A stretch of DNA of 34,851 nucleotides from Rozella allomycis CSF55 (lineage: Eukaryota): positions 62,001 through 96,851 of the forward strand of contig KE561200.1 of the NCBI GenBank assembly GCA_000442015.1, read 5' to 3'. The notes under the pieces are model-generated. The model did not search any database. It was not told the origin of the DNA and saw only the letters and a program-made list of their open reading frames with translations. Position numbers and translations under genes: made by a program. Shown here in pieces: positions 6,473 through 29,925 of this stretch. The first letter of the stretch is position 1; every line of letters starts with the position of its first letter.

Positions 6473-6556
6473 CTTCTATAAACAAGCCCTGCCTTTTAAG
6501 GAAGAAAACTCTGCCACATGAAAGCGTGATCCGAAATTTATGAAACCAGTATTAAA

Positions 6557-7625
6557 CTATTTATTAAATTTCGTATTATAACTATTGGTCAAGTTTAAAT
6601 AAGTCGACATTGCAATCTGGGTAAAAAAGAATAACAATTTACATTTGTGACATCACATGCATTAATTTTCAAGATTTTTTCAATTTCGTTTTTATTTTCC
6701 ATCCATCTTGAATACTCTAACCTTATAGGTCGAAAATATTCAATCAATGACTCTGCTACAATATCTTTAAATTTGTCATATCTATTAAGATTTTCATATT
6801 CTAATTCAATCGACTGCAAATCCATTTCTTTAATGCCTCCTAGAATGGTCATCAAATTTGAAACACCGGACATTTTTACAGGATCATACAATATTTTCGT
6901 TCCAATATCAGTTTTCGCTCTCTTTACAGTTTCACGAATTGAATCTGGAGAATCTGTAATGAAAATACATCCATTCTTTGACTTGTCGGATTTTGACATT
7001 TTGCTAACCGGATCCTGAAGACTCTTAACCTTGGCAATCTCGGCTAACATTAAATCTTCATATATTTACATAAAATCGCTTCAGGAACAGGCAAATAATC
7101 TGGGGCTTCTAAAAATTGTCTGCATTTATTGGCTAATTTTCTAGTCAAAACCATATGCTGCGTTTGATCCTCGCCAATTGGAACATGAGTTGCTCGATAC
7201 GCGAGTATATCAGCTGCTTGTAGTATAGGGTATGTGAATAACCCCACATTGCCAACGTTACCCGATTTCAGCTTTTCTTTCCATTGAATCATTTGATTTA
7301 ATTCATTTACAGATAGCAGACAACTTAAAAACCAACTCAAGTTTGCGTGCACCAAATTATGCGATTGTACGAAAAGACTCTTTTGAGGAATTCCACATGC
7401 AAGTAATGTAGCTGCAGCTTCTATGATGAAATATTGAGAATATTTGTTTGATGTATAAGCATGTAAATCCATAATGCCAAAATAAAAGTTGTCTGTAGTT
7501 TTTGCCAACTTGACTGAATTTTTTATCACACCGAGATAATTCCCCAGGTGCATTTTTCCGGTAGGTTGACTAGACATTATCTTTAATGATACTTACATTC
7601 CGGTCAAAATTCGTTTCGCTTGCAT
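6557..7625 (-). CDS. MSW1: Tryptophanyl-tRNA synthetase, bacterial/mitochondrial type; 3 introns
   Basis: MQAKRILTGI/QPTGKMHLGNYLG (HIGH-type motif), GLFTYPILQAADIL, VPIGEDQTQH, KMSKS. Confidence 0.93.
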
Positions 7626-7883
7626 AAATTGCCAAGAAGAAAATTCGGAGATCGGGTATGAAAATTCCAGCAAATAGGATAATGCTTAATGAGAAAAGGC
7701 TATAAAGATTAATGAAATCGGTAGCATAGAATATAGATTTTGCGAACCCTTACTTGGTGATTCAATACTATGAGACTTGGAAAATTGGAAATAGTCACTC
7801 GAAAATATGACTTTCCTCCAATTATACATAATTGAAATAAAAAAGACTAGTTTGTCTGGTTAATCCAGACTTTTCCAAAATTG

Positions 7884-9051
7884 ATGACTGATTCTGTAAA
7901 TACCAATCATTATTGAAGATTAGCGTTCATTAGCCAGGAAAAATATCAAAAAAGGATTAAACTTTACAATTATGACTGTTGGTCATAGTGGATTGGGAAA
8001 AACAACCTTTGTTAACACATTGTTGGAGACTACAGTTATTCCTAAAAAGGAGATCCCAGACGGCTATCATTCATCTCTGCCTAAAGAAATTGACATTCAG
8101 ACATACACTTTAGGTAAATAGCATAAAATATAACCCATTAGATATCGATGAAGGTGGGAACAAGATATCCGTCTCAATTGTTGACACACCGGGATTTGGT
8201 GATTCTTTAAACAACACTGACAGGTACATTGCATCATTTATTTCTTTGAAAGCCCACAGAAACTAATGGAGTATTTGGAAACTCAGTTTGATGAATTTTT
8301 GGCCGAGGAAACACGCATCAAGAGGAATCCGAAATCTGAAGATAAAAGAGTTCACGTTATTCTTTATTTTATATCTCCATTTGGACATTCGTAAAATGAA
8401 ATGATGATATAGAGATAGATTGAAAGAAATTGATATTCAAACAATGAAACTTTTGTCCAAGAGAGCAAATATCATCCCTGTAATCGCAAAAGCTGACGGG
8501 CTCAATGCAACTGAATTGCAACATTATAAGAGAAGAGTAACTGATTAATCAGGTTATTACAGATCATGGAAGACATCAGAAAGTTTCAGATCCCAATTTA
8601 CGATTTTCCGTTTGATCCAGAAGAGGACGATGCTGAGTTTATCAAGTTGAGTTTAGAAATGAGGGTAAATTATAAGCATTAGTAATGATAGAATTGTTTA
8701 CCATTTGCATTGATAGGTGCTGATCATGAAATGGTAGAGAATGGTCGTCGCAAAAGAGGTAGAATGTACCCATGGGGTTTTGTCGATGGTAATTGCATGA
8801 TTATTTTTTATTAAAGTCGATAATCCAAAACATTCTGACTTTTCAAAGCTAAAGAAAGTATTACTCAAGTAATTAAAATACAACATCGATAAAGTACCAA
8901 TCTAAATGACTTGAAGGAAATAACGCAACTAATTTTGTATGAAAACTATAGAACAGAAAAGTTGAGCGAAGGAATGTAATATTTGTTAAACAAAATCAAT
9001 AGGGAAATGGAGGAAGGACAGCAAGTTCCCGAAGCTGAAGTGTCTGCCTAA
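7884..9051 (+). CDS. CDC11: Septin, Cdc11/Spn3-like; 9 introns of 26-29 nt (absent from the ORF track)
   Basis: Spliced translation: KKGLNFTIMTVGHSGLGKTTFVNTL, IVDTPGFGD, EETRIKRNPKSEDKRVHVILYFI, NIIPVIAKAD, GRMYPWG, HSDF, LYENYRTEKL. Subgroup assigned from the RIKRNP and FPFDPEEDD motifs. Confidence 0.9.
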
Positions 9052-9101
9052 ATGTTAATAAAAATGATTTCTTGAATAATATATTAAACAATGTCATGTA
9101 A

Positions 9102-11025
9102 ATGGTTTTAATGAATGTTGGGGACCCCTGCAATCTCTCGTATTCTATGCTTGAATGTAATCTTGACCCTCGTCTTCCAGTTCATGCCAAGACAAAGGAG
9201 AAAATAGTGATGGTGCCAGTACCACAAATTAAAATGGATGAATATTTTTTCGAATGGCTGTTTTCTACCGACGCAATACAATTATTGGAAGACAACAACA
9301 ATTTTGATACCCAAACAGACGAAATAGAAGCTATAGAAAATAATAATAAACTGGAAGATCATCCCCCGATGTCGCCTAGATTGAAGAGAACTACAGAGTT
9401 GTTGTCATCAGATGTGAAGAGACTGAGTATCCTAGGTAAGAAGAGATTATTTGAATGATAAAGAAGAAAATAGTTTGATAGGAGAAAAGTGCTCCTTTGA
9501 AACCGACAAGGACAAAACAAAAACGATAGACCGTTTCCATTTTCCGTTTGGAAAGCCCATCCCTGAATACGAAAAGAAGAATCGATTAAGAATTATTTTG
9601 GTATGCAATTGATATGCGATTAACAAAGCATGCTGCGAGAGAGAGATTTCCAGATCATGGATTGTCATGCNATTTCCAGACCATGGATTGTCATGCTCTG
9701 AGTTTGCCGCCATTACAAAAATCTGCAACTTGCCAATGTATTTAAATCAGTGTTTATTTAAGAAAATGGAGAGTAATGAAAATGCAAAAGTGAAGTATAT
9801 GCGATTTGCAAAGTAGAAAAATACAAAGATTGTGTTTTAGAGTATATAAAGATTTGTATATGAAATATCATGATGAAGTTTCATTAATATTTGGGATAAT
9901 AAAAAATGACAATAATAAATATTTTACGCGCGATGATTTGGTTCCCTTGATTTCTGAAATTTTGGAAAAACATGCTGGGTTAAAATTTCTGGAGCAATTG
10001 CCAATGTTTCAAGAGAGATATAGTAATTATGTATGATTTGATTGATTTCTGTGGAGACTGTGATTTGTAGAATATTTTTTACGATTAACAAATCATGGAA
10101 TGGAAAGATAACGTTGAATGAGTTTAAGAGCAGCAATTTTGTGCAGATATTGAAAAAGTTGGAACAATATGATGATATAAATGAAGTAAAATTAAAATAT
10201 GAAATTAATGAAAGTGTCGTGATTATTTTAGTTATAAACATTTTTATGTAATTTATTGTAAATTTTGGGAATTGGATTCTGATCATGATTTGAAGATTAA
10301 TAGAGAAGCGTTACTTAAATATGATAATTATGCGCTTTCATCGAAAATAGCAGAGAGAATTGTTGCAGGGTATGGACTAGGAAAGAGCAAGAATGAAGTA
10401 ATGGAATATTCAGATTTTGTTTGTAAAATGAAAATAAATAAAATAAAGGGTTTTTGTTGGCAGAAGAAGATAAAGAGAATCCAAGGAGTATTGAGTATTG
10501 GTTTCGATGCATGGATCTTGATGGCGATGGAATCATTTCTATTTATGAAATGGATTATTTCTTTAAAGAGCAACAAAGAAAGATGGAAATGATGCAAGTT
10601 GAGTCAATTAATTTTCTAGATTGCATTTGTCAAATGTAAATCTTTTTTTTCATTTTTATAGATTTGATTCAGTGGCACCTCAGATACCCCTGCAATTGAA
10701 ATTGAAAGATTTGAAGAAAAGCAAAATAGCGCCACTATTTTTTGATATGTTTTTTAATTTTAGTAAATTTATAGCACATGAGCAGCATGAAGCATCGTGG
10801 GATGTAATGGCAGATAAAGAAATGAGGTAAATCAAATCTATTTGTTTAATTAGTTTGTGGGATAAATTTGCTGAAGAAGAATATGACAAGATGACGTTAA
10901 ATGACGACAATGAAGTTTCTCAAGGGTCTTCTGGAAATCCTTCTGTGGATGATTTTGCAATCTATGAAGGGCTTTGCGTTAATCGAAACTTTAATGAAGA
11001 TGATAAAAACATGACAAATCTTTAA
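9102..11025 (+). CDS. Protein phosphatase 2A regulatory subunit B'' (PR72/PR130 family, EF-hand); about 8 introns; true start may be ATG at 9210
   Basis: [91 protein letters not shown]. Confidence 0.92.
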
Positions 11026-11055
11026 TAAACTATTTTAAAAATCAACTAGATCTCA

Positions 11056-11082
11056 AAATAGATCAAATAGATCAAATAGATC
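11056..11082. repeat. Short tandem repeat (AAATAGATC)x3 between two convergent 3' ends
   Basis: aaatagatc aaatagatc aaatagatc seen directly. Confidence 0.8.
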
Positions 11083-11125
11083 ACAAATCACTCTGTACAA
11101 ATTATAAATTGTGCTATTTATTAAT

Positions 11126-13020
11126 CTAAACAAGTTCTGCATCTTCCAAGTATCGATATTCAAATGTGAATTCACTCTTCCTCCTTTGACACCACGATCC
11201 TTCATAGTCAAAATAAATATAAGTTCCTTGCTCATATTCATCTGTAATCAATTTAGGCTCATCGTGTCGCTGGAACCACGTTAGATATTTCTTATGAAAC
11301 CTCCAACTTTGTCTCTTCAATTCTTTCGCAGCCAAATACCTCCTTTCATCCCCACCAATTACTTACTGTTGATATGTCCTCTGCTGATAATAGAATATAA
11401 AAAATAATGTATCATTTTCAAATTTCTCATAAAGAACCGGATTCTCAAAAATTGGTAGTGGCTGAGTAGGATAATATGGCGGGGTGTTTACAGGATTCTT
11501 TGGCGAATAATTCAAACTTCTATTCATTCAATAATCAAAATTATTACTTTTCAGAATCTACAACGTCTGGAATGTTTTGAAACGATGAATCTACCAGATT
11601 CTGCATCATCGAAAAATCATTCTTTGCTACAAATAATAAACAGTCAACTTTGTTACGTTTCATTCTATTTGATGTTGACATGTAATCAGTCAACAAAGAA
11701 AATGAAAGATTCAAATTCTCACCGTCAGCATCCGAGCCTCTACTCAAAATATTTACAGGTGTTTGCGCTCGCTTTAAATTGGCTTGAATATCATGAGACA
11801 TTAAATGGCTTTCTGTAAGTTTCGAACTATTCGAATCTGGAATCGATGTTGACTCTGAAATTGACGGAGATCCTTCATCTTTCTTTTCAACACGCGGTAC
11901 AATTCCTTTCACTCAATTGATTATTCATTACCCTTGATCTTTGTTGTTGGCGATGGGGTAACTAGTGATGGTGGAAGTTGCTTGTTCCACACTTTATTGG
12001 TTTCATTTGAATTCGACTCTGTTTTCGAACTGATCATGGCAGAATAAGGCACATTCGGTTTGGGTGGTGGCGGAGCAGGCACCGGCGTTGGGGTCAACGT
12101 CTGTTTTATAAGCACCGGAGGATTCGATTCTATTTATCAATATCAAATATTTTTACTCTTTCTTATAATTGGCTCTTTAGGTTTCAAACTACTGGAATTG
12201 TTCAAAGGAGTTTTGCTTGGTTCAACTTCTACAGGCTTCTTCTTGATTTCAGGCTCATCGTCATCCTCATTTAGTTCATCCTCGTCTTCCATATTTAGCT
12301 CTTCATACATTTCTTCATCTTCATCGAAATCAGGCTCTTCATTGTTTTCAAGGTAATATTCAACGCTGTCTTTAATACCAGAAACCTGCTCATTGGTCAA
12401 AATGTCATTCTCCAAGTTTCTCAAAACATGCTCCAACTTGGCTTGATGGAACTTATATCTTTCCACTTTAGCCTCCAACTCTTTCCTCTTTTCAAGTTCA
12501 CTCTTTTTCTGCTTTTTTAGTAACAATGCTTCTATTTCCGCCTCCTTGGCATCTATTTGCGTATTAAGCCGATCAACACACCCATTAATCCACGAACACA
12601 AATCCGACTTTTCTTTTTCCCTGGGATCTATTTTAACAGCTGCGTTCAGTCCTTCTTTCGAATACGCTTTGGTTTTCATTTCGCGCTCGCAAGCCTTATT
12701 TCCATGTTTAAATTACCTTACTTTGAATTTCTCCATCATAGTTTCAATTGTTCGCCTAGATTCCAGTAAACTAGTCTTGTCTTTAATCTCGGTTCCCGCA
12801 ATCCATGTTTTAATTTGATCTCTTAGTCGCTGCAGCTTTTTAATTTCTCGCTTTAAATCATTCTCAAACTTTTCTTTCTGATTTGATGTCGTAGCCGCAT
12901 AAAGTTTATCAAATATTTCTTCAAAAACCGCTATCCCTTCAGTAACTTTTTTTAACGTTTTATCTATTTCGCCTGTCTTATACACCATAAATTTATACTC
13001 TGGAGCTTTCTCGTTGTCAT
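11126..13020 (-). CDS. NOT3: CCR4-NOT complex subunit Not3/Not5 (CNOT3); about 7 introns
   Basis: [50 protein letters not shown], and NOT-box [23 protein letters not shown]...[13 protein letters not shown]. Confidence 0.95.
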
Positions 13021-13099
13021 CTAAAACGTGGAAATTTACAAGAAAAGGTGCGCCGTTCGCAAAGCAAAGCAAATATTTAAAAACAAAATTTTATTGCTA

Positions 13100-13961
13100 T
13101 TACAAATACAATAACTGGACTTTGGGATATGATAACATTAATATTGACCTCCAAAGTAACCTAGATAAGAAACCTGCTGCAAGCACACCATATGCATTGA
13201 ATATATTCACATTTAAGAATGCTTTGATAGTAACCCTTGATTTAATTACCAGATAATGCTTCCGCATTAGATGTTAATACAAATACATTTATCAATGCAA
13301 AATAGTCAAGAGAGTTGTAATCCCAGATAACCATCAAGAGAACAATCAATTTAAAAAAGGAAGATATGATTAAAGATATGGAAATATAATTGTATCTATA
13401 TGGCAATATCATACGTTTTACTTGACAATAATAGTTTGAGACCATTTCATTGTTACAAGACACCAGACAGCGGCCAAAACACCCAAATGAAATACAAGAA
13501 CATCTAAAATTAGAATAACATATTTATATTACCGATTGTTGATATGACAAAAAGATAGATGTATTTAAAAATGAAGCTTGAGGTTTGAAAATCGACAATA
13601 AACCATTTAATATCTCTATTACAAAGCATTATAATGTACAAACATCAAATAGTATCAAAAGCGTCCCTATACGAAAAACAATGCTTTGAAATCCCTTGTC
13701 GACGTATTCCATTCTATTGAAAAGCAGATGCCTATAGACTTGAGATTTATGCAACACCATTTAAGTACTAAACATTACAATTACCATGTCTATGAATATT
13801 ATTATAAATTCCAACTCCACATATGGATCTGCAATAACCCTGCATTTTTCCTCATTGACAAAAATGCATAAACTTACACAAGGAGACAGCCTAATATTTC
13901 CTTTTGAATATTCTGTATATAAACTATTAACTGAATGACCGCATTGCACGCAAATGGGCAT
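13100..13961 (-). CDS. ARV1: Sterol homeostasis / GPI-related ER membrane protein Arv1; about 6 introns
   Basis: MPICVQCG...NIRLSPC/EKC..ADPYVE zinc-binding Arv1 homology domain, IDM/VLHKSQVYRHLLFN, LFDVYIKW, LLMVIWDY. Confidence 0.9.
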
Positions 13962-13996
13962 TTTTTAAATTTTGGTAAAGAAATTTCATAAAGAGT
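13962..13996. promoter_or_regulatory. 35-bp divergent intergenic region (ARV1/CWC22), putative bidirectional promoter
   Basis: ATGs at 13961(-) and 13997(+), with two AAATTT elements in between. Confidence 0.6.
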
Positions 13997-16355
13997 ATGA
14001 TGGCAGAAGAAACTGTTTCGGTGCCCGTGTTTGATCAAACAAGGTCAGGAGGAGCGTATATTCCACCTGCGAGACTTGCGCAAATGCAGCAAATAGTTAC
14101 TGACAAGAAAAGCGAGGCCTACCAGAGAATGGCATGGGAGGCACTTAAAAAGTAAAGGTAACACTAGTATAATATAGGTCTATAAATGGGTTAATTAACA
14201 AAGTTAATATTTCCAATATAAAGCATATTGTGCCCGAGTTGTTTAGTGAAAATCTCATAAGAGGAAGAGGACTGTTTGCGAGAAGTATGATGAAAGCCCA
14301 GTCTGCTTCTTTACCATTTACAAGAGTATATGCGGCTGTCGTGGCAGTTGTTAATACAAAATTACCGATGGTTGGTGAAGTGTTGCTGAAGAGATTAATA
14401 ATACAGTTTAGAAGGTCATACCGCAGAAATGACAAGGTAATGCTATATAATTTTTGTTAATAGGCTCAATGTTTGGCTGTGACAACGTTTCTTGCTCATT
14501 TAGTCAACCAAAGGGTAGGGCATGATATTATCGCATTGCAAATATTAACGCTGCTATTGGAAAAGCCAACCGATGATTCTGTAGAAATAGCTGTTGGTTT
14601 TATGAGAGAATGTGGTTTGTTTCTGCAGGAATCATCACCTGCAGCAACGAATACCGTTTATGAAAGATTCAGATCAATTTTGCATGAAGCGCAAATAGAC
14701 AAGAGAGTTCAATATATGATTGAAATTCTGTTTCAAGTCAGGAAAGAAAAGTTTAAAGTAAGCAATTTATGAAATTTCAGAAAGGAACATCCTATTGTGA
14801 TTGAAGAGCTTGACTTGGTAGAAGAAGAAGAACAAATAACGCATTTTCTTTCTATAGATGAGGAACTTGATGGACAAGATTCATTAAATATTTTCAAATT
14901 TGATTCTAGCTATCTTGAAAATGAAGAAAAGTATCAAAGAATAAAAGCTGAGATTCTTGGAGAAGATTCAGATGAGGAAGAGGGTTCATCTGATGAGGAA
15001 CAAGAAGAGACTGAAAATGCAAAGGTTGAGATACAGGACAGAACAAGTACTAATTTGGTGAATTTGAGAAAAACCATTTATTTGGTTGTAATGTCGTCTG
15101 TTGACTTTGAAGAATGTGTTCATAAGTTAATAAAGTTGAATATTGCAGAGGGACAAGAGGTATTTAATTTGTGAAATTTCGTAATTTAGATTGAGTTGTG
15201 CAAAATGTTAATTGAATGTAACAGCCAAGAGAGAACATATAATCGTTATTATGGATTGATTGGGGAACGTCTTTGCAAGTTGAATCAAATCTGGATGGAG
15301 CAATTTGATAAATCATTTAGAGAGACAGTAAATTTAGTAAATTTCAGAAATTAGTTTGAAACAATTCATAGATACGAAACCAGTAGAATAAGAAACACTG
15401 GCAGATTTTTTGGACATTTATTTTCAATGGATGCACTTCCGTGGTCAATATTTGAGATTATTCATTTAAATGAAGAAGAAACCACATCCGCTTCTCGTAT
15501 CTTTATAAAGGTATTGTTTCAAGACTTGTGTGAATCTCTTGGATTGAAAAAGCTTAAAGAGAGGCTTTCTGATCCGTAAGTTATAATTTAAAGATTTATT
15601 AAAGATTTATGCAAGAATTTTTCACTGGAATTTTTCCCAAAGAGAATCCAAGAAACACTCGTTTTTCTATCAATTATTTTACTTCTATTGGATTAGGTGG
15701 AATTACTGACGATATGCGTGAGTTTCTCAAGCAGAAAATTCAAGAGCAAGAAAGCAGCGATGAATCTGAAGAAGATTCTTCAGAATATGAAAGTTCCGAT
15801 CAAAGTGATTCTGAATGTGAACCGTCAAGTCCACGCAGAGATCATAATGGTAAGTTAGTTGAAGCAGAGTACAACTATCGCATGCGTTCACCAAGTCCTT
15901 CTCGCAGCCGAGGAAGGTCACCAAGTAGAAGCAGATCACCTGCTAGACGTCACCATGAAAGCAGATCTCGTCACCGTGAAACAGATAGATCTCCAGTCAG
16001 ACGTCATCGTGAGCATGAAAGAAGCAGATCTCGTCATCGACGCACTAGCAGATCCCCTGTAAAACGTCGTGATACAAGCAGATCCCCTGTTAGACGTCAC
16101 CGTGAAACAGATAGATCTCCAGTGAGACGTCACCATGAAAGAAGTAGATCTCGCCATCGTGAGACGAGTAGATCTCCAGTTAGACGTCACCGCGAAAGAA
16201 GCAGATCACCGGTGAGGCGCCGCCATGAAAGTCCATCAAGAGAAAGTAGCAGATCTCCAGCTAGAGAAAAAAGATCACGATCCATAAATCGTCGCTCAAG
16301 AAGCAGAACTCCAAAGCGTTACAATAAAAGAAGCAGATCTCGCTCTCGTCATTGA
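13997..16355 (+). CDS. CWC22: Pre-mRNA splicing factor Cwc22 (MIF4G + MI domains, RS-rich tail); 6 introns
   Basis: [92 protein letters not shown]. Confidence 0.96.
15925..16270 (+). repeat. Coding imperfect tandem repeats encoding [15 protein letters not shown] units in the CWC22 RS domain
   Basis: Recurring agatctccagt-agacgtcac-cgtgaaa units. Confidence 0.85.
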
Positions 16356-16459
16356 ACTCTAAATAAACAATACTTTATTATTGATTAATCTAGTCAAAGA
16401 TATAAATGAAAGAAGTAAACTTTTATTGAGTATTTCCCTCAACCTGAATATCTTCAAAA

Positions 16460-18301
16460 TCAAAAGCTATAAAATTTGACCTTTGCAATCAACTTTTCAT
16501 TAAAGATAAAATTTCCCTGAAGATTTAAATGAGATAAATTTGATGTTTTCATGCTATCAAACAAATGAGTAGCGCCTAAATCGTGGATCTGATTGCATTC
16601 CAAGTCAAGAGCCCTAAGCATGCATGATGGTAATATTTGTGAAAAACGGATAGCTGTTGCATCAGTAAGTAAATTCTTTGACAAGTCAAGAACATGCAAC
16701 CTTTCAATAAGAGTGAACAAAGATTCAATATCCTCATCACACAATCTGTTTCCAGAGAAATCAATTTGTTTCAAAGATATTGGCAAACTTAAAGATGCAA
16801 AAGCATGCTTCAAACTTGGCTTTATTTGAAACTTGTCGTAAAACGATTGTTGTTGAAGTCCAGACACACATAATTCTTCAAGTTGTAAACCTCCTAGATT
16901 GAAAAAGAATGGTTTGATGTCCTGACTTGGCATTCCTTCCATGCAATCAAAAGAAAGTGATTTCAAGAATATTTTATTGCGACTCTTGAATATATTGATA
17001 ATTTGGTTTAAACTTCCTGCTTGAAATGATCTCGCTTGAACAGAAAGTGTTGTTAAATAATTCTTCTTAAATCTCAAGGCTTTTGATAAAGCTACAAAAC
17101 TCGTTTTCCTGATTTCTTTTGTTGCAACGCTCAATGATTGCAAAAAGTAAAGTCTTTTGCCCAACAATTTAAACGCTCTTTCATCAATATCGTAAATTGA
17201 AACAGTAAAGTCCCTTATTCGGCTTTTGTGCAGTCGGTTGAATAAACAGTACAGTCCATTATTAATTTGAGTTGTATTGCAGTACCTTCTATTCAATCCA
17301 ATCGACATTGTTGTGACTTTACACTCTTTAAGTGCTTTTGAAAGATAGATGAGCCATTCGCTGTCAAAATTATTGTCAGATAAATCAAGAGTTGTAACAG
17401 GTAGAGTTCTTATACAATCAACCAATTCAAATGGTAACATGGTCTTAATTCCAGTCAATGATAATACAGAAAGCCTATCTAAACATAAAAATGATGAAAT
17501 ATTGATATTGCAATTAATGTTGCACATTTCTACATTCTTAATACGTCTCGATAACTTTAAAATATCCAAAAGTTCTGTATTTTTGCAATGAGATTTCAAA
17601 TTCCAAAAAACAACTCTCTCCAATTGCTTAAAACAAGGGTCATTAAATTGATACTTTCCACATGGAATATTACCATCCGTAAATGTTACTGATTTCAAAG
17701 TGTCCATTGAACTAAGCGATTCTATAAACTGTTTAAACCCACGGCTTTTTAAAAGTGAGCGCCCAATAACAATTTCTTTGATTGCAGACTTTTTCATCGC
17801 TACTTGAAGCTGACCAATCTCGTCACCACGAAATTCCAAAAGTGAAAAGTCAATGAAAGTTACTCTTGAATTTGGAAGCTCATTTATGATCTCTTTAATC
17901 TTTTTGGAAGATATCGCACGTATTTCTTCCTCTTCGATATCATCGTCAAGTCTGGTAAAGTCAAAATGCAATATGAATCCAAATTTCTCAGGGAGATTTA
18001 ACGGTATAATCTTTTTCGAAAAGTATCTCATGTCTGATGCTACAATACATTTTAGCAAAGAAAGGGCATCTTTGGACCGACTAATGATTCTTGCCTTGAC
18101 TTGTGAAAACTTGGTGTCTTTAAGATTCAAATTTGGAAAGACATCGCTAAACTTTTCAATTTTCAGTTGTCTTTGGAGGTTCAATAACGGCCTGATCATC
18201 GTAAAAAATTTTCGGTTCGTCATTGAAAGGATCAAAAGGTCTGCAGCCTCCAACTGAAAGAAAATGATACGGATTGTTTCACTTGATAATACCGAGAGCA
18301 T
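16460..18301 (-). CDS. Intronless F-box-like plus RNI-type leucine-rich-repeat protein (613 aa)
   Basis: N-terminal LSVLSSETIRIIFFQLEAADLLILSMTNRKF fits the F-box pattern. LRRs include LDLSDNNF, IDFSGNRL, LDLSKNLL, LDLECNQI and LNLQGNFI. Confidence 0.8.
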   Translation of the reverse strand: MLSVLSSETIRIIFFQLEAADLLILSMTNRKFFTMIRPLLNLQRQLKIEKFSDVFPNLNLKDTKFSQVKARIISRSKDALSLLKCIVASDMRYFSKKIIPLNLPEKFGFILHFDFTRLDDDIEEEEIRAISSKKIKEIINELPNSRVTFIDFSLLEFRGDEIGQLQVAMKKSAIKEIVIGRSLLKSRGFKQFIESLSSMDTLKSVTFTDGNIPCGKYQFNDPCFKQLERVVFWNLKSHCKNTELLDILKLSRRIKNVEMCNINCNINISSFLCLDRLSVLSLTGIKTMLPFELVDCIRTLPVTTLDLSDNNFDSEWLIYLSKALKECKVTTMSIGLNRRYCNTTQINNGLYCLFNRLHKSRIRDFTVSIYDIDERAFKLLGKRLYFLQSLSVATKEIRKTSFVALSKALRFKKNYLTTLSVQARSFQAGSLNQIINIFKSRNKIFLKSLSFDCMEGMPSQDIKPFFFNLGGLQLEELCVSGLQQQSFYDKFQIKPSLKHAFASLSLPISLKQIDFSGNRLCDEDIESLFTLIERLHVLDLSKNLLTDATAIRFSQILPSCMLRALDLECNQIHDLGATHLFDSMKTSNLSHLNLQGNFIFNEKLIAKVKFYSF

Positions 18302-18437
18302 AAGAAATTTGTTTGCAAACCTACTGTAAAGGCGCAGTCAATCTGACAGGATGAAGCTTTACAGTTTAAAAAGTCAAAATTAATAACTAATGCAAATTAT
18401 TTAAACAAATTTATATGTATTTATTACAGCTCGTATT

Positions 18438-20106
18438 TTAATTCAATAGAAATTGTTGAGCCTGTTCTTTAGTGCCTTCTGGATTATCCAGTTGCCATTC
18501 AATCATTTTATTCGAGTAAAAAGAAATTTGTGTTTTTTCTATGCCTAGGACATCTATTAATTCATGACCCTATGATTTTCTTCATGTAACTCTTACATTT
18601 AATAATGGTCGCATGTCCCAGCATCCATCCAAGTTAAATAATTCAACGGATCTGAAAATCTCCTTGTTTATTTGCACAATCTCTTGAAAGCTTTTTATGG
18701 AATGTGAAACTTCATGAATAGAAGCCATCAAAAGGCACATAGGCCACAAGGGTCCTACGCTTCTTAAAAATAGACCAACATATTTTCTGGACTTTTGCAC
18801 CGGGAAATTATCCATAAATGATTTGGTATTTAAAAGTCCCGTTACGCATACCTTTAAATTTTTAATGTCTTTATTGGTAGCCTTTAAAGAATGAGTCGCT
18901 ATAAATGAAACTAGAGGAATTTCATTTCTTTTCTTTCCAGATGCGTTATTAACAAAATAGCCATGCAATGGCAATAATCCCAATCCATACATACAAAGGC
19001 GTTGGTCAATTGAATCGATTGATTGTTTAAACGGTTGACTGTCGATAAATCTGAAAGTGAAAATAAATTTATCAAGCGTACTTTTTATAATTTTTAAGAT
19101 ACAAGTCCACAAAACAATCAAATTTTTCTTCTGGGCAATCAACTGCATTGAATGTGTTAGAATCTTCGACTAATGAATCAAGTTTAAGTTCACATCCCCA
19201 TCGAAACACATTGGAACACATTTTTGTTTTGACAATCAAGTTTAAAGAATCAGTCCGATTTTTATGTTTAAACATTTTATCCAGCTCGGTTCGTACTCTT
19301 TCACGGCTCACTTTATCGTGAAACGCTTCGATAACACTCTTATCTTCAACTGCTTCAAAGATTTCTTTTTCTATCGAATAAGAAAATCTAGAGGCGAACC
19401 TTTTTCCATGATAGATAAACAGTTACCTTATTGTTCGTAATATTCTTAATGGATCGTCGAGAAAGGTTTCTTTTGGTGGCAAAGGTGTTCTAATAATTCG
19501 GTTCTTCAAATCTTCTAAACCTCTTTTTGTGAAGTCTTCCACAATCTTTGTGTGAATGTTGAAAAATAATGCATTTATTGTAATATCTCGGCGAAGAGCA
19601 TCTTCCAGAGGTGTACCAAATGTAACATGGGATGGTATTCTTGAATTGTCAGCATATCAACTATAGAAATAAATTAAGGAATTACTTTTCACTTCTCAAG
19701 TTAACAAAATCGATTTGATGTCCAAATAATTTAACAGTTGCTGTTTCCAGATGCTTACTTTTATCTGGATTACTTCCAATAACGCCGATTGAAATATGCG
19801 GCAACTTTAATTCATTCACATAAGAATCAAGCTTTTTGGCAAACTGTTCACCCGTCATGGTATCTAGCGCTACATCAATATCGTCACAAGATATGCCCAG
19901 TAACTTTCTCAAAGTGAAAAGCATCTTACTTTATCACGGACCCAGCCTCCAGCGATTCTACATACTACGTTCAACTTGTAATGTTTGACACAGTTAACAA
20001 GAACTTGACAAATTTGTTCTTCTGTTTTGTTCAAGATTATCATATTTTCAGGCGTCCGTAAGTCTTCGGGGCTTAGTTTGAACTGTGATCTATAAATATT
20101 TGTCAT
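18438..20106 (-). CDS. CCA1: CCA tRNA nucleotidyltransferase (class II); 5 introns; start codon approximate
   Basis: RIAGGWVRDK/LLG..DDIDVALD, NPDKSKHLETA, DFVNLRSE, EDALRRDITINALF, TFLDDPLRILR, VSRERV, EWQLDNP. Confidence 0.94.
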
Positions 20107-20233
20107 TTGATTAAGCGGATCATATGCATTCAAAATTTACAACGAATCAGTGATTCATGATTGAGATTTATTTGTGACAAAAACTGCCCTTTAAGGAAAT
20201 TAAAAAATTTACAGTGCAAGCCATTATCTGTCA

Positions 20234-21377
20234 ATGAACACAAAATATAGGCTAGTAGATCTTTTTGCGCAAGGTTCTTTTCAAGAAGTAATATCTAAGA
20301 AGTTATTTGAAACTTTTCACGAGAAGTTAATACAAGCGGACTCATACTTTTGCTTGGCGGAATACCAAAAGGCAGCTGTAACGATACTACAATAATTTAA
20401 AAGGGCTTATATTTTAAATTAACACGTGAGACCTCTGGAAAGCTTGTCTCATTGACTAGACTGGCGCAAGTAGGACTGCAAATGCCAAAGTTTACGGTGG
20501 AAGATAATGGCAAAGAGATTAGTCTTTTAACATATACTAAGAATATGATGGATCGATTAAATCATAAAAAGTAAATGTCTTCATCGTTCGAGAAAGAAAT
20601 AGTTCAATTATTGATAACAGATTTCATTATTTCAGAGGAAAACTAGAACTTTACAATCATAATTTTGAAGCAGCGCTGCCAGTATTTGAGCATATTTTAC
20701 CAAAAATGGACTCTTGGCTTCCGATAAATATCTTTGCCAATTATTACAAAGGCGTTTGTCATTTGCTAATGGGTAACAAAATTCAATAAAACCAAAAATA
20801 GATAACGATAAAAAATCCATGAAATGTTTTGAAGAGACGATTAGAGAGTATATGACATCAAAAGAAAAAATAGTCAATGATATGCCATTAATTTTCGATG
20901 AGGATATTATTGAATCACATGGACCGTTAAATAACGATCGTAGGATTTTTCGATGTATTAAATTCAGATATTATGGCTGCTAATTGCTTTGTGAATGCAG
21001 TTCTAAATCACTCAGCTTTATCTACCTCTATGGAATTGATAGATTATGATTTCATTATAACTCATTTAAAAGCCATTTTAACAGAAGAATACAGTAACCA
21101 TCTTACCTTTAAGCAGCGCGCCTTCGCGCATTATTTGATAGCAACTCTAATCTCTCGACAGAGTGACTACGAAGATTCCAAGAATCTTGCAAGGTTTCAT
21201 TTTACAAAATCAATGACTTGCGACGCTAAACTGTTAAATTCGGTTAATGCCAATGCAGAATGCGAACGCTTTTTCGCTTTCAATAACTTTCTTAAGACTG
21301 ACTTACTCATGTCAAAACTTTTAAGTCAAAATGCAAGACAAATGCCATTGAAATCATTTAACATTATGATTAATTAA
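20234..21377 (+). CDS. Hypothetical helical-repeat (TPR-like) protein; about 4 introns
   Basis: Exons join in frame through 26-29 nt GT-AG introns. TPR-like segments: ADSYFCLAEYQKAA, YYKGVCHLLM..DKKSMKCFEE, AHYLIATL. Confidence 0.65.
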
Positions 21378-21421
21378 TAAATTAGTTTATTATTGGGCAT
21401 TAGCTTTTAAGATGGGGTTTT

Positions 21422-21658
21422 CTAGGTTTGAGAGGTTGAAGTTGCGCTAATATACAAGACATTATTTCCTCTGACAAAAGCATCGCCATATTTATTTTTC
21501 AATTGTCCGTTCACATATTCTTCAGTGTTTTCCAAAACTAAATTCATGTAGCCGTCTAGGCAAACCAAGATTCCTTTGTAATCGACATTTGAGTTTAGTT
21601 TAACGTGTACTTGTTTACCAATTACAAGTCGCAAAAAATCAGAAGGAGTTTGAGCCAT
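21422..21658 (-). CDS. LSM6: U6 snRNA-associated Sm-like protein Lsm6 (intronless)
   Basis: MAQTPSDFL...VKLNSNVDYKGILVCLDGYMNLVLENTEEYVNGQLKNKYGDAFVRGNNVLYIS. Confidence 0.95.
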   Translation of the reverse strand: MAQTPSDFLRLVIGKQVHVKLNSNVDYKGILVCLDGYMNLVLENTEEYVNGQLKNKYGDAFVRGNNVLYISATSTSQT

Positions 21659-21694
21659 CAAATCCAAAAAGTTCAAACTTTTGGAAAATTCACA
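21659..21694. promoter_or_regulatory. 36-bp divergent intergenic region (LSM6/RAD23), putative bidirectional promoter
   Basis: ATGs at 21658(-) and 21695(+). Contains the inverted repeat TCCAAAAAGTT-CA-AACTTTTGGA and an AAATT element. Confidence 0.6.
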
Positions 21695-22854
21695 ATGAAA
21701 ATCACCCTTCGTACTCTTCAACAAAAGTCTTATCCTTTGGAAGTCGAGCCAGAATCAACTGTTTCTACTTTGAAAACTAAAATTGAGGGAGACTTTGGTC
21801 ATCCTGTAGCTTCTCAAAAATTGATATACTCTGGCCAAATATTGCAAGACGACCGCACTATCGCCAGTTACAATGTCAAAGAGAATGATTTTTTTGTTCT
21901 TATGATTACAAAGGTAAATTTCTTAGAAGCCCTTGTGATAGGCACCTATGAAAGCGCCGGCTGCTGTGTCAACACCATCAACGCCGGTAGCAAGCAATTC
22001 AAGCGTACCCGTGGCAAAAACTTCAAATCCCCCCGAAACATCCGGAAATGTGGCTTCAACTGAAAGTGCTACTGCTGCTGGAAATGCCCCCAGCCAACCC
22101 CATCCAAGTCAAATGTTTGGAGGTAAAAAAATGTATATAGTTACATTTAGTTTCAAGGGAACAATATGAAGCAATGTTGAACAATCTTGTTGAAATGGGT
22201 TTCCCAAAAGAACAAGTTGTTAGTGCATTGAAGGCTAGCTATTTCAATGCTGACAGAGCAGTAGAGTTTTTGATGAACGTAATCTTGTTTTTTAGTTAAA
22301 TAGCAGGGAATTCCTAGTGATGCCGCTGAAAACAACCAGTCACCACCAACTGCAACGAATCCAGTGACACCTGCAGCAACTGGGAATGCAGTCGCACAGG
22401 AAAGTTTGCCTTCAAATCCTAACGCACTGAGTGGAATTTCTTCTGACCCCCAATTACAACAGTTAAGGCAAATTGTTCAATCCAATCCGCAAGTTTTGCA
22501 GCCATTGCTTCAGCAATTAGGAATGAACAATCCCGAATTAATGCAAGTAATAGACCCACCTTTTGTAATAAAGGCAATAAGTGAAAATCCAGAGGCTTTC
22601 TTACAAATGCTTTCCCAGCAAGGTGAAAATATGGAAGAATACGATGAAGGTACTGAGCAGGAAGGCGTTCAATACATTCAAGTTACTCCAGAAGAAGAAG
22701 AAGCCATAAATAGAGTAATAACTCATTTTAAAATTCATTTTAGTTAACGGCACTTGGATTTGACCGTGCCAGAGCAATAGAAGCCTTTTTTGCTTGCGAC
22801 AAAAACGAGACTATGGCTGCCAATTATTTATTTGATAGCATGGATGAGCAATAA
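21695..22854 (+). CDS. RAD23: UV excision repair / proteasome shuttle protein Rad23 (UBL-UBA-XPCB-UBA); 5 introns
   Basis: [13 protein letters not shown] with [13 protein letters not shown]1 EMGF...[13 protein letters not shown]-binding [23 protein letters not shown]2 EAINR/LTALGF...[14 protein letters not shown]. Confidence 0.96.
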
Positions 22855-22981
22855 AGGTCTCTTTTAATTTTATTACTAAGATAGCTTTTAAATTAAACAA
22901 TACATGTCGCAAATGTCGTGTCGTTAGGTCCCCATCGAAATCGAAATGTTTGATAAAATTTATCCTGTCCCTGAAAGTGTA

Positions 22982-23054
22982 GCCTTCTTAGCTCAGTTGG
23001 CAGAGCGCATGCCTAGTAAGCATGAGGTCGAGTGTTCAAATCCCTCAGAAGGCA
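22982..23054 (+). tRNA. tRNA-Thr (AGT)
   Basis: Acceptor stem GCCTTCT/AGAAGGC-A, D-arm TAGCTCAGTTGGCAGAGC, anticodon stem CATGC-CT AGT AA-GCATG, T-loop TTCAAAT (one T-stem mismatch), and a T5 terminator about 10 nt downstream. Confidence 0.93.
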
Positions 23055-23096
23055 TATGTTACCTTTTTGGACTTTGTTTTCTATTTGTAAACAATA

Positions 23097-26000
23097 ATGC
23101 AAATGCAAGTTTTGCAGTCTACTAATATTCCCTGGAGCAATATTCTTTCATTTAACTTATTGAAACAACGAAACGATCCTATTTTTGATGAATTGATTGA
23201 CTCATTAATTGACAGCAATGCAACAAAGGATGATTTAAAGCGTTCTATTGATGAATGGGTTAACCTGTTTAATGTAAAGGGTTAAAGGATACAATATAGT
23301 TTATGAAGCAGGGTCTTATCCTTCGCACAGAGTATTTGGCCACGGCAGATGAAGAGATCACCCAACTTCAGGTATAAGTTTCCATAGAACTGGAAAGAAT
23401 GAAATTGATGCCCTAAAAATAAAATCAAGCCCTGACCAGATTTTTTTCGACAGAAATATCTCGGATTATGAAAGTCGACTGCAGGAATTGCAAAACGAGC
23501 TGACCGTATAACATAATATTGTACCTTTCCCATAGAATGCCCAAATTCAAAATTCAAAATATGAAGACCAAGTTATGGAACTGAAAGAAGAAAACAGAAG
23601 GTCCCAAGGTATGCAATGAAACTTCTACCATAACAAGATCTTTTGTGTGAAGAGTTGTCTAATGAGAATAAGACATTGGAGAGTGAAATTAAATCACTAG
23701 AAGACACTTTGCAGAAAGAAAGACTTGATTCTTTGAACCAATTACAAGTAAATGATTGATATTGCCAATATTATGAGTTTGAAACTAAAATTGAACGAAT
23801 ATGAACTCAAGTTGGATCAGTCAGAAAAGGAAATAAAGAATTATAAAAGCTCTCTTCAAAAAATAAAGGATCAGCTATCTTTAAAGAAGGAGCAAGATGA
23901 TGAATACAAAAAGATAATTAGAGACAAAAATTCAGAGGCATCTAGGTATTTGAAAGAAATCGAGGACACAGTACGCAAATACGACTCACTGAAACTGGAA
24001 AATGATAATAATATACTCTGTCTAAAGAAATTGAGGGACGATTATGAAAAGTAAGAAAGAAAATTACCTTACATCTTGAGTTTGAGAAACGAAAAAAGAG
24101 AACTTGAAATTGTCGTACAAGAAAATGACACATTGCTAAGATCATTAGAGAATGACAAGCAATCTTTAGAACGGAAATTAAATGAAGCATTGGCTAAACT
24201 GGAAGAGAGAAACAACTTGGATGAAGTTGTATTTGATGAAATAAAAGAGCAAATTGCGGAATGGACTGTAAAGATACTTTTGTATTTACCAAAGGATGTT
24301 CTAGAAACAAAAGAAAAGGAGATATGCCGATTGATTGATGAAAACGAGCGATTGAAAAATGATATGATTAAAAAGAATATAGAGTTAGAGGAATATGGAT
24401 TTAATCTACAAACAATCGTTGAAAAGGACGAAAAGATAAAGGAGCTTTCTGACGCACTTGATGATGCATATCAAGACTTTGAGGCCCTTGGAGGGACCAT
24501 GGTGAATATAGAATCACAAAGCAGGGAAAGAATATCTGAAAATGGAGAAATTAATGATTTGGCAAATAAATTGCGACATCAAATAAAATTAAACGAGGAT
24601 TTAGAAAGTCGTTGTGTACAATTGGAAACAGAAATAGTTCATTTTCGTTCAATGATTTACCGATACGAAAGTGGTAAATATTTATAGTTAGTTGAAATAG
24701 GTGAGTATGGATTGACTGAAGCAAACCATGAAATCTCCAAATTAAAGAAATCAATTCTAACGAAAGATAATGAAATAAATGAGCTTGTGCAAAATGTAAA
24801 TCATTTAGAACACGAAGTAAAACTTGATATGGAATTAAAGAGATCAACGACCTGGTCGAAGAGAATTTAGCGATAAAGGAAAAATACAATGTCAATGAAA
24901 ATGAATTAAGGAAAACAACTAGAGCATTAAGGGCTTTAGAGAGTGAAAAATTAAGGGCGGAAAACTATCAGTTGAGAAAAGAAATTGACGACTTGGAAGA
25001 AGAAAGGATCAAGCTGAAGAATCAAATCAGAGTCAAAGTTAAAGAAAAGGCTGAAGGTGCATTAAGCATTGGAATGAAAGTTACGGATATATTATATCTT
25101 GAAGAAGGAGTTCAACATGAACCCCAAGCGGAAGAAAATACGAAAAAGTTTGTTCAAAATGAACAGTTAAGGTTTTCAGACAAGAATATAATGACAGACA
25201 ATTTAACACAAATAAAAGATGATAAAAAAGTAACTAATTCATTCGTACAGTCCTCATTTGACAAATTTGAAAAAGCCATACAATCTGAATTGTCGACGTC
25301 CGAGCAAGAAATCCAAACGGTATTTTTTCAAAAGGGCCAGTCAATTCAAACGATTGAGCAAGGAGTCGGAGATTCTAAATATATCAAAGAGCTTGAAGAT
25401 CGATATGAGCAAATTAAAGAGAAATTAAGAAATGTTTTAAACAAGAGAATTCAAGAAGATGAAGAAAATAATTCTAGATTCATCGATTTGACTGACAAAG
25501 TAACCTTCAATTTAAAGTAAAAGAGTATGAAAATGAAATTAACCAATTGAAACAAGTGATAGAGAGTTATTCAAAAGGTGAACATCCCATAAATCAATTC
25601 TATAAAGCTTCCATGGAAACCCTGGAAGAGCAATTGAAATACAAGGAAAAGATAATTTTCAATTTAGAGAAACTATTGAAAGAGGCGCAAGNAGAGACAC
25701 TATTGAAAGAGGCGCAAGAATCGGTTTATGAAAAATTGGAAACTCGTAAATAAATATGCTTTCATAGAGTTAGAAAAAAATGAATTAAAGAATTACTATG
25801 ATACTTTAAAGGAGAAAAAAAATCTCCTTGTATCTCAAAGCCTGGTTGAGAAACCAGTTCAACTAGAACCTCAAAATAACTTGTAAACAAACAAAAGTTT
25901 CATAATAGCAACGACATTCGAATGCTAAAACAAGATTTTCATCAAACTGTAAAAATAAAAGTAAAGCAAAATGATCTTAATTAAAGGAATATGAAATCGA

Positions 26001-27568
26001 AACCCTTCAATTAACAATAAATACCCTGGAAAGAGAATTGAATTTAGAAAAACAGAAACATTCTTCATTAAATAAAGCCTTAGATCAATTGAAACATCAA
26101 ACAGACGAAAAAGATCTTGAAATTAAGGACTTGCAAAGAAAGGTAAGCACCTATAACGTTATGTAAAAGGTGGCCTTCTTGAAGCAAAAAGGAAAGAGTG
26201 AATTAGAGAAAGAAAAGAAGGATCTAGAAAGAATATCTTTAGAAAAGGAAAAGCTTCGTGTTGAAAATGAACAAAGAATATTGAAGAGATCAAATTCTTC
26301 ATTAACTGAAATCTCTAAATACAAGAGAGAAATGGAAAAGATGAAAGAGGAAATCAAAGAAAAAGAAAATTTGATCAATGAACTTTACCAAATAAAGGAA
26401 CAAAAAGATAAAATGGCCAATGATTTGGTAAAGAAGAGTGTTTTTGCCACAAATTGTTCAATTAAAATATCCAAATTACAAAATCAAATTTCTGATCTAA
26501 AAGAGGAAAATGCTAGAATAAAAGAAAGAGGTAATGTTCTATTGTGAATTTTCAGAGTTGATCTTAATGAAAAAGAGAGACCAGAAACAACAAGAGTAAA
26601 AACTTGGGAAGCCGAAAGAAAACTTCAAAGAAAATTAAAAACATGTCAAATTCAATTAGAAGAAACTGTATCAAAGTTAAGATCGAAAGAATCTGAAATC
26701 AATTCTCTAAAGGACTTGATTCAAAAACAAGCAACACCGTCAAATAAAAATGAAGTTGAAAAATTTAATCATTTACTAAAATCAATCGAATCTAAAAGTT
26801 TGGAAATCAAAAACTTAAAATCCCAATTGGATGCCCTGGAAAGCAAAGACTTTCACGACGAATTGAAAGCATCGAAAATCAAAGATTTAGAATCACGAAT
26901 AGAACATTTAATGGATATTTCCGAATCGTCGCGTGAAATTAAAGACTACTTGACAGAGATCGGCAATTTAACAAAAGAGGTTGTAGAATGGAAAAGTAAA
27001 TACGAAGCTGCCCAATTCGAGCAAACCAAAAACCAAAAAGAAATTGACCGCTTAAATCATAATATTAAAGATCTAGAAGGTCTTCTATTCACTAAAGAGA
27101 AGGCCAAGAAAATGTCTCTCGAATTGGAATCATTGAGAAAGGAAAATACAGAATTAAAAAATTGTCTTCTTGAGACTTCTAAATTTGAAAAGTAATGAGC
27201 GCTTTTCATAAATAATAAAGCCTTCAAGAAGAAAACCAAAAACTAATGTCTGAAATTTCTGTATTGAAATCTAAACTCCAGTCGTTTACAGGGTCTTCTA
27301 CAGTCGCACCCAAGAAGAAATGGGAATTCGAAGTAAGATTTTAATTAAATATTTAAACTAGATCGAGTCACTTCAATCGCAAGTTCAAAGTCTGTCAGAA
27401 AAATTAGAGAAACCCAAATCAGACGATTTTGAAAGTTTAAGACAAAAGGTTCAAAAATATGAAGACTCTAATGTTTTGTTGATCAACGAATTGAAAGAAA
27501 TCAGGGATAGTTATCAACTAATTAAGGCAGAGAATCTTAGACTCAAACAAGCCAAAAGTTTTGAATAA
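23097..27568 (+). CDS. CEP290: Centrosomal/ciliary transition-zone protein CEP290-like long coiled-coil; about 17 introns
   Basis: YESG/EYGLTEANHEISKLK...KDNEINELVQNVNHLE and LRAENYQLRKEIDDLEEERIKLKNQIR match the conserved CEP290 block as I recall it (YESGVYGL...RAENQILLKEIESLEEERLDLK). N-terminal NIPWSNIL and C-terminal WEAERKLQ also fit. Confidence 0.8.
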
Positions 27569-28830: not shown

Positions 28831-29925
28831 TTATTTTAAAAATCTTTTCAGACATTCTAAATTCCCACAATCACGAGCAACATCCAAAGCCGTCTTCCCT
28901 TGATAATCCTTTTGTTCAAGAAAGTGACTGCTAAAATGTATATCCTTGAAAATTTGTTTGAATATTGTGTCGCATGAGCTAATTAGCGCTAGAAAATGAA
29001 GAACAGTGGACTTTGAAAAATCTTGGCTATTTAATATCCACTGCGATTCATCGTTGTATCTCTCTCTTCTTTTATCAATTATCAATTGAAGCGTAGCTGG
29101 CATTTTATTCTTGACTGCAAGCAATACAGCGTTACATCCATCAAATGCTCTAGCATCCATGTCAACGTTGAAAGTTAATAATTCTTTAACGAAAAAAGTA
29201 AATCCATTTTCCACTGCTAATAAAAATGGTGTCCTGCCCATCCTATCACACGATTCTAGCCACCTCTTGTCTTTCTCGCAACAAAGTTTGATGACACTCC
29301 AGTATCCATATTTAGCTGCTTGATAAAGTGGCGATACCTTGTGAGAAAATGAATTATTCAAGTAAACAGATCTCCATTTTTCACTAAAATCATCAGCATT
29401 CCCTTTGATAATGTCCCATTTTGATATAGCGGGAAATGTATCAATATTAATAAGAGCAATAGCAGAAACGGATAATTTTGCAAACAATAGTCTTCCAAGT
29501 TTTCTTTTAGTCAATCCATAGATAACAGGTATATTTTTTGACTTGCATTTTTCAATGATGCTGTATACCGAACAGTAAAAGTGATCTATCCTTGAAGACT
29601 TAAGAAGATACCAGCTTCAGTATTTTTAGACAACTGGATATTGGTAGCCATGATTACACCAAACACCCTTAGTTGCGATTTTTCAAGCTGCTTCTGAATT
29701 TCTTTCATACCCACGATAACATATCTTTCGTTGAGGTTAGGATAACTTACTTGTTTTGATCATTAAGAAGGTTACATTTATGCAAGGCTGTTTGGGATTG
29801 CCAGACCTCGTTTATTAGATCAAAGAGTTGGTTTTCAAAGGTTTCAGTTATGATTTGTGTGACATACCAAAAAAGTATAAAAATTAAAGTTACGGTTGAA
29901 TTACTCGACAATTTTGTTCTTTCAT
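28831..29925 (-). CDS. SECIS-binding protein 2 (SBP2)-like L7Ae RNA-binding domain fused to C-terminal ankyrin repeats; 3 introns of 26 nt
   Basis: Spliced: (MKEQNCRVIQP)YVTQIITETFENQLFDLINEVWQSQ...KYVIVGMKEIQKQL...VIMATN...SIIEKCKSKNIPVIYGLTKRKLGRLLFAKLSVSAIALINID, then ankyrin motifs SPLYQAAKYG, GRTPFLLAVENG, GKTALDVA. Introns at 29586-29611, 29725-29750 and (non-canonical) 29868-29893. Confidence 0.72.

Follow-up and report, generated by a model that had tools for sequence, protein, structure and literature searches.

A candidate TG 3′ splice site at the flexible-loop junction of the Rozella allomycis CCA-adding enzyme gene

Introduction

The closest described parallels to the splice site considered here are the U2-type TG-AG tandem 3′ splice sites of human genes. 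According to the excerpted text of Szafranski et al. (2007, PMC2374985), TG is used at these sites with an AG within 28 nucleotides (nt), a pyrimidine at −3 and a purine at +1. We describe a candidate TG acceptor in intron 2 of CCA1, a gene for a tRNA CCA-adding enzyme, within a 34,851-nt stretch of the Rozella allomycis CSF55 genome. This stretch, hereafter the window, was the scope of all our gene work, and all coordinates are window positions. Like the human sites described in those excerpts, the proposed CCA1 intron 2 has a GT donor, a TG acceptor, an AG 3 nt upstream, T at −3 and A at +1. Unlike the human sites, where the excerpts never have TG as the sole site, the TG of CCA1 would be the only productive site, in an intron of just 28 nt whose nearby AG leads to a stop codon; the Rozella case is known from sequence alone. 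GT-TG splicing as such is already known, and the CCA1 case is a variant, in which an AG at 25 nt competes with a TG at 28 nt at a catalytic loop.

The loop in question is well described in fungi. Excerpts of PMC7014341 give the flexible loop of fungal eukaryotic-type CCA-adding enzymes the consensus Yxxx(x)SRxP, with a basic/acidic (B/A) motif immediately upstream. The same excerpts state that the loop switches the nucleotide pocket from CTP to ATP, and that loop deletions and most point mutations strongly inhibit the addition of the terminal A. With the TG cut, the predicted Rozella protein shares the features of these fungal enzymes that the excerpts list, i.e. the PolyA_pol head, the R-x-E form of the B/A motif, the Yxxx(x)SRxP loop and the RRD motif, and we see no difference from them, whereas the public Rozella models are without the loop core. 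Rozella itself goes unmentioned in the text consulted from two papers on CCA enzymes (PMC7014341, in excerpt, and PMC4538823).

Rozella introns are short. Lengths of about 30 nt, with two introns in S23, are given in excerpts of PMC6349667, and a density of 2.5 introns per kb is given in PMC8476143. We found no literature report of TG acceptors, or of an intron range of 26-31 nt, in Rozella. CCA1 intron 2 is like the ordinary mini-introns of this organism in its GTAA donor (19685..19682), its length of 28 nt, which falls within 26-31 nt, its AT-rich content and its T at −3. It is unlike them in terminating in TG rather than AG.

Results

Intron 2, as we propose it, occupies 19658..19685 on the minus strand. 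It is 28 nt long, reads GTAA...TTG, lies in phase 2 and is the sole cut from a GT donor that gives a K-then-Y junction with the conserved spacing. The exon frame on its 5′ side reads ...IDFVNLRSE and is followed by two bases, AA (L-R-S-E plus AA is 19699..19686). The R-S-E codons just 5′ of the junction (19688..19696, minus strand) are a B/A motif as defined in the excerpts of PMC7014341. On the 3′ side the frame opens at TAT, position 19656, with YADNSRIPSHVTFGTP, and reads YADNSRIPSHV; its YADNSRIP codons (19633..19656, minus strand) match the fungal loop consensus from the same source. In CCA1 the intron therefore falls precisely where the B/A motif gives way to the flexible loop.

Three candidate cuts can be made from this donor. 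The first would use the TAG at intron nt 23-25 (19661..19663, minus strand), the AG of which would end a 25-nt intron and which we propose is bypassed. Cutting here gives AAT and then an in-frame TGA (19657..19659, minus strand), and translation from 19659 opens with a stop, after which comes YADNSRIP. The second cut, after the TG at 28 nt, gives AAA (K) and then TAT (Y). When the 28-nt cut is shifted by one base in either direction the GT donor is lost, which leaves GT...TG as the sole form that begins normally. The third cut would use the next AG, at 19641..19640, and make a GT-AG intron of 46 nt that keeps the frame (19640..19685, minus strand), with the loss of six codons, those for YADNSR. 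The TG site thus has one AG 3 nt upstream and another 18 nt downstream, and both of these would produce introns outside the 26-31 nt range. The loop consensus is present in the 28-nt reading, or in the 25-nt reading with a stop ahead of it, and is absent from the product of the 46-nt cut.

The public gene models use the 46-nt intron. At this junction the protein P0002 reads LRSEK and then IPSHV, resuming at 19638. The strain has been assembled a second time (locus-tag prefix ROZALSC1), and P0273, the protein from that assembly, shares this junction; both public CCA1 models, EPZ31962.1 and RKP19249.1, are without the core of the flexible loop. The proteins of the two assemblies differ at 2 of 503 residues for CCA1 (P0273 against P0002) and at 4 of 349 for Rad23 (P0123 against P0274), another gene of the window; these differences could be amplification errors or allelic differences within CSF55.

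To characterize the spacing between the two motifs we relied on two sets of sequences. A search with the CCA1 exon-3 peptide found 770 proteins among 883 candidates. The best match was the Rozella allomycis CSF55 protein, and the others among the best 120 of the 770 were fungal CCA tRNA nucleotidyltransferases of 67-83% identity. The 119 non-Rozella proteins among these best 120 form our fungal homolog set. A scan of metagenomes with the Rozella protein as query found no close relative. The second set came from a further scan, with an alignment as query, which yielded 80 loci, 31-51% identical to the Rozella protein, that are fit for examining motif spacing and not for comparing introns.

The spacing is constant. 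In all 119 fungal homologs R-x-E is followed by one residue, Y, three further residues, S or C, then R, x and P. At the six disputed positions, the Rozella letters are shared as follows: Y by 119/119, A by 109/119, D by 18/119, N by 54/119, S by 118/119 and R by 119/119. In the metagenomes the motif was found in one frame at 78 of the 80 loci, with one residue between E and Y in every one of the 78, and no contiguous motif was found at the other two. In PDB alignments the loop is shared by the Arabidopsis enzyme and fission-yeast cca2, and a bacterial enzyme has it in an RRP form; fission-yeast cca1 is without it. Measured against this record, the 25-nt cut inserts a residue found in no homolog, and the 46-nt cut deletes six residues that are present throughout the family. 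A profile built from the 119 homologs scored the 28-nt product at 466.4 bits, the 25-nt product (with X at the stop) at 460.4 and the 46-nt product at 437.5. The conserved spacing E-x-Y-xxx-S-R-x-P therefore leads us to prefer the 28-nt TG cut over those at 25 and 46 nt.

The loop codons are also hard to dismiss as intron sequence. There are 3 matches to a loose pattern, Y[AST]..[SC]R, among the 69,698 six-frame positions of the window (the mean in 50 shuffles was 4.18), i.e. a chance of about 6 in 100,000 at a given position. The strict form, YA..SR, occurs once in the six frames, at the CCA1 intron 2 junction. It is unlikely that a true intron spells the loop motif in frame by chance.

We then considered length as a property of introns across the window, by listing all GT...AG stretches of 18-70 nt whose removal joins two open frames. 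Strict flanks left 24 single-solution junctions, with lengths of 22 (1), 25 (1), 26 (7), 27 (5), 28 (1), 29 (5), 30 (1), 31 (1), 55 (1) and 61 nt (1). The four outside 26-31 nt were rejected: those of 25 and 55 nt fall on the antisense strand of known genes, that of 22 nt lies within the last Arv1 exon, and that of 61 nt gives way to an ordinary intron of 26 nt at 28004. With looser flanks, the 117 GTA donors on gene strands gave 2 GT-AG candidates at 24 nt and 3 at 25 nt, then 20, 20, 11, 11, 5 and 6 at 26-31 nt, 1 at 32 nt, and a background of about 1-8 beyond. The lower edge is sharp at 26 nt. None of the candidates inspected that were shorter than 26 or longer than 31 nt held up. Apparent long introns at 28021 (50-61 nt) and 10248 (56 nt) were resolved to ordinary GT-AG introns at nearby donors (26 nt at 28004 and 29 nt at 10186), and in a 54-nt candidate at 2350..2297 there is an N together with a duplicated segment.

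Apart from length the introns carry little information. Exactly one in-range solution, and so a length of 26-31 nt by construction, was found for 69 donors, a few of them doubtful. Ten of these introns were dropped by judgement before profiles were made, which left 59 curated introns. These begin with GTA, followed by A at position 4 (81%), and have T (53%) or A (32%) at −3, with no other informative position. A search of the 59 for yTnAy revealed no preferred branch distance and no informative branch-point motif. For the intron 2 options, the 3′ context falls at the 44th percentile for the TG at 28 nt, the 68th for the AG at 25 nt and the 20th for the AG at 46 nt. Within the window introns, upstream AGs are bypassed at every distance up to 25 nt: at 24 nt in four introns, in three of which the AG would break the frame, and at 25 nt in two. 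The frame decides in four of these six introns and homology in a fifth, that of Rad23. Length seems to be the main splicing signal in the introns of this window. An acceptor rule for them is not simply the first AG at or beyond 26 nt, because in the minus-strand intron at 33666..33696 a CAG at 26 nt is apparently bypassed for a TAG at 31 nt (93 versus 26 open codons downstream).

Two of these introns are useful parallels for CCA1. Tandem acceptors three bases apart belong to the type called NAGNAG, and the example in the window is the Rad23 intron (22279..22306, plus strand), which has TAG at nt 25 and CAG at nt 28. We examined 92 Rad23-sized homologs from a search of representative sequences, of which 61 match the relevant motif and 31 do not. 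In 60 of the 61 there are two residues between E[YF]L and GIP; three occur only in the public Rozella model. Both public Rozella Rad23 models use the 25-nt TAG and so carry an extra Q before GIP. The PDB and NCBIfam matches for Rad23 stop short of the GIP motif, and a word search with the 42-residue exon found Rozella alone. Homology thus favours the CAG at 28 nt over the TAG at 25 nt as the probable Rad23 acceptor. Here, as in CCA1, a TAG stands at nt 25, a second site stands at nt 28, and homology favours the second. Unlike in Rad23, the second site of CCA1 is TTG rather than CAG, and its first site gives a stop rather than one extra residue. At these junctions the two public models look wrong for CCA1 and for Rad23 alike. 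The other parallel is a 27-nt intron of a coiled-coil gene (26531..26557, plus strand), where a CAG at nt 25, in the context TTTTCAG, is bypassed for an AG at nt 27; here the evidence is the frame, with 121 open codons upstream and 211 downstream.

A second candidate GT-TG intron lies in a long coiled-coil gene (23748..23775, plus strand). Also 28 nt long and of the form GTAA...TG, it joins two open frames. No in-range GT-AG cut was found that joins the frames on either side of it, and an AG at nt 30 breaks the frame. The second-assembly protein P0275 starts inside this element and agrees with it letter for letter from intron nt 5, across the TG, which argues against an indel error. P0275 begins at an ATG inside the element, and a gene start at this internal ATG, rather than a GT-TG intron, is a possible alternative.

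Much of this was foreseen in the initial annotation of the DNA. It had proposed a 28-nt GT...TG intron at 19685..19658 with a TAG at nt 25, the use of which would give AAT TGA, and our direct reading of the minus strand and translation from 19659 agree on both counts. Its further point, that the TG cut fits a conserved LRSExYxxxSRIP spacing, holds for 119/119 fungal homologs and for all 78 motif-bearing metagenome loci. The suggestion that a 25-nt intron is too short and TG is used in its place is likewise borne out, as far as sequence can do so, by the abrupt start of the window introns at 26 nt, the two bypassed AGs at 25 nt and the best profile score. In framing the choice as one between TAG and TG, the annotation was right to favour TG but overlooked the canonical GT-AG option at 46 nt.

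Discussion

We conclude that the productive CCA1 mRNA is probably made by the removal of 28 nt, from the GT at 19685 to the TG at 19658. That the TAG at 25 nt is bypassed, and that the TG at 28 nt is the likely productive acceptor, is supported by the motif spacing, the profile scores, the intron lengths and the parallel introns. Neither neighbouring AG is predicted to give a normal protein, and this argues for TG as the main site.

We propose the following mechanism. The spliceosome would pair with GTAA at the 5′ end of an intron that, as in other Rozella introns, may offer it little signal beyond this donor and a length of 26-31 nt. An acceptor fewer than 26 nt from the donor would be unable to reach the active site, and the AG at 25 nt would be too close. 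The cut would move three bases on, to TTG, because of this proximity, and would there fall inside the allowed 26-31 nt while keeping a final G, T at −3 and A at +1. We infer length as the cause of the TG choice.

Several observations weigh against this conclusion. A canonical, in-frame AG lies 46 nt from the donor and has been adopted by both public models. This AG would also be selected by a rule that takes the first AG no closer than 26 nt, and such a rule accounts for nearly every other intron of the window. By 3′ context score the options at 25, 28 and 46 nt are not told apart, and the introns are almost without internal signal. TG acceptors are rare; in the excerpts of PMC2374985, human ones are confined to places where a nearby AG is also used, and AG-to-TG mutants, rather than splicing at TG, turn to neighbouring AGs. 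The T at 19659 is known from the letters of the assembly rather than from raw reads. A second tRNA nucleotidyltransferase gene is possible elsewhere in the genome, beyond the window that we covered. Finally, the one metatranscriptome found, chosen by its species label (share 0.00), gave nine chance matches to 6500..25650, each of about 19-26 bases, and no joints, which is uninformative either way.

Could the public model be right? The intron would then be the 46-nt GT-AG at 19685..19640 and the enzyme would be without the YADNSR core of its loop; CC addition without the final A would be expected, and another enzyme would have to supply the A. We regard this as unlikely, even though the cut keeps the frame, has canonical GT-AG ends, obeys the rule of the first AG at or beyond 26 nt and was chosen by two annotation pipelines on two assemblies. 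Gene predictors permit AG only, so the agreement of the public models is not independent. Excerpts of PMC7014341 report that CC-adding and A-adding activities are split between enzymes in some eukaryotes, but the eukaryotic CC-adding enzymes described there retain a degenerate loop rather than a deletion. The loop is missing from 0/119 homologs and 0/78 motif-bearing loci, the in-frame consensus that the cut throws away has a chance of about 6 in 100,000, and the product falls 29 bits below that of the 28-nt cut. At 46 nt it would also be the sole convincing intron of the window outside 26-31 nt. An error in the letters themselves is a different matter. If the T were a sequencing or assembly error, or a strain polymorphism, the true acceptor at 19659..19658 would be an AG (TAGTAG or similar), and this single base change would make an ordinary tandem acceptor like that of the Rad23 intron. 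The assembly is imperfect, with four Ns in the window and a duplicated segment around one of them. Nevertheless, we think this very unlikely. Given an AG at 28 nt, a gene predictor should have produced the longer protein of 509 amino acids, and the second assembly, which was called separately and differs at 2/503 residues elsewhere, still gives the model of 503, a weak point against an error; the second TG candidate (23748..23775) has identical letters across its TG in the other assembly.

The AG at 25 nt might instead be used, with the in-frame UGA read through or recoded, or with an unproductive isoform that is removed by nonsense-mediated decay (NMD). This AG is canonical, its 3′ context ranks at the 68th percentile, and a product with X at the stop loses only 6 bits on the profile. 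As the productive route, we nevertheless consider this the least probable of the explanations. Its extra residue between E and Y is seen in 0/119 homologs and 0/78 loci, GT-AG candidates of 25 nt are no more numerous than background (3, as against 20 of 26 nt), and two other AGs at 25 nt in the window are bypassed. The initial annotation had mentioned AG splicing with UGA readthrough as a less likely route, and as a productive one it does not survive these comparisons: TGA closes 7 of the 18 frames of at least 150 codons in the window, including that of a leucine-rich repeat gene, and long frames lack all three stops. Splicing at 25 nt as a minor by-product targeted by NMD is possible.

If the TG cut is real, an essential enzyme relies on a splice site that neither standard rules nor gene predictors accept. 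It may even be, and we suggest this tentatively, that 3′ sites in Rozella are chosen mainly by a ruler of 26-31 nt rather than by AG, with TG as the one productive acceptor, used constitutively, of a few per cent of introns; candidates number 2 among the roughly 60-70 introns of the window. Such a ruler would break the rule, derived from human genes, that TG works only beside a used AG. Introns of 26-31 nt that are almost without internal signal would be a natural system for studying the choice of 3′ site in the second step of splicing and the limits of the AG requirement. We see only a slim chance that the TG at 28 nt and the AG at 46 nt compete, giving a full CCA-adding isoform and a loop-less, CC-only isoform from one gene.

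The CCA1 gene and other features of the window

The CCA1 gene lies at 18438..20106 on the minus strand, with an ATG at 20106, a TAA at 18440..18438 and six exons, and was delimited by placing the public Rozella protein P0002 (503 amino acids) on the window exon by exon, with exact matches, and by Pfam. The PolyA_pol head domain (PF01743) was found in exons 2 and 3 and the RNA-binding domain (PF12627) in exon 4, and the RRD motif is present. From these head and RNA-binding domains, the B/A motif, and the loop that the TG cut would restore, the gene is a class II eukaryotic-type CCA-adding enzyme by predicted activity.

Its other four introns, all on the minus strand, are of the GT-AG type. Intron 1 (19904..19929) is 26 nt long and bypasses an AG at 22 nt, its junction RDK|LLG agreeing with P0002. 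Introns 3 (19400..19426, 27 nt), 4 (19051..19081, 31 nt) and 5 (18570..18596, 27 nt) are taken from the P0002 mapping and the window intron list.

The window has a GC content of about 33% and about twenty genes on both strands. A Pfam search identified, among others, a myosin, a class I W/Y-type tRNA synthetase, a septin, NOT3/5, Arv1, Rad23, DDI1, aminopeptidase P and a mitochondrial carrier. In frames as long as 633 and 625 codons none of the three stops occurs, from which we take the standard code to be in use; a ciliate genetic code was ruled out by these frames together with the fungal best matches.

Two further introns have unusual boundaries. In an ankyrin-repeat gene (29725..29775, minus strand) two full 26-nt GTAA...AAG units stand head to tail and share one G. 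The removal of either unit alone leads to the same downstream frame, so there are two equally good solutions for the junction. In the myosin motor gene (2284..2350, minus strand, with an N at 2310) the end of a 28-nt intron and the first 13 bases of the next exon appear twice in tandem around the N, and the whole has the appearance of a 54-nt intron. Either an overlap in the assembly was left unmerged here, or an intron-exon boundary has been duplicated in tandem.

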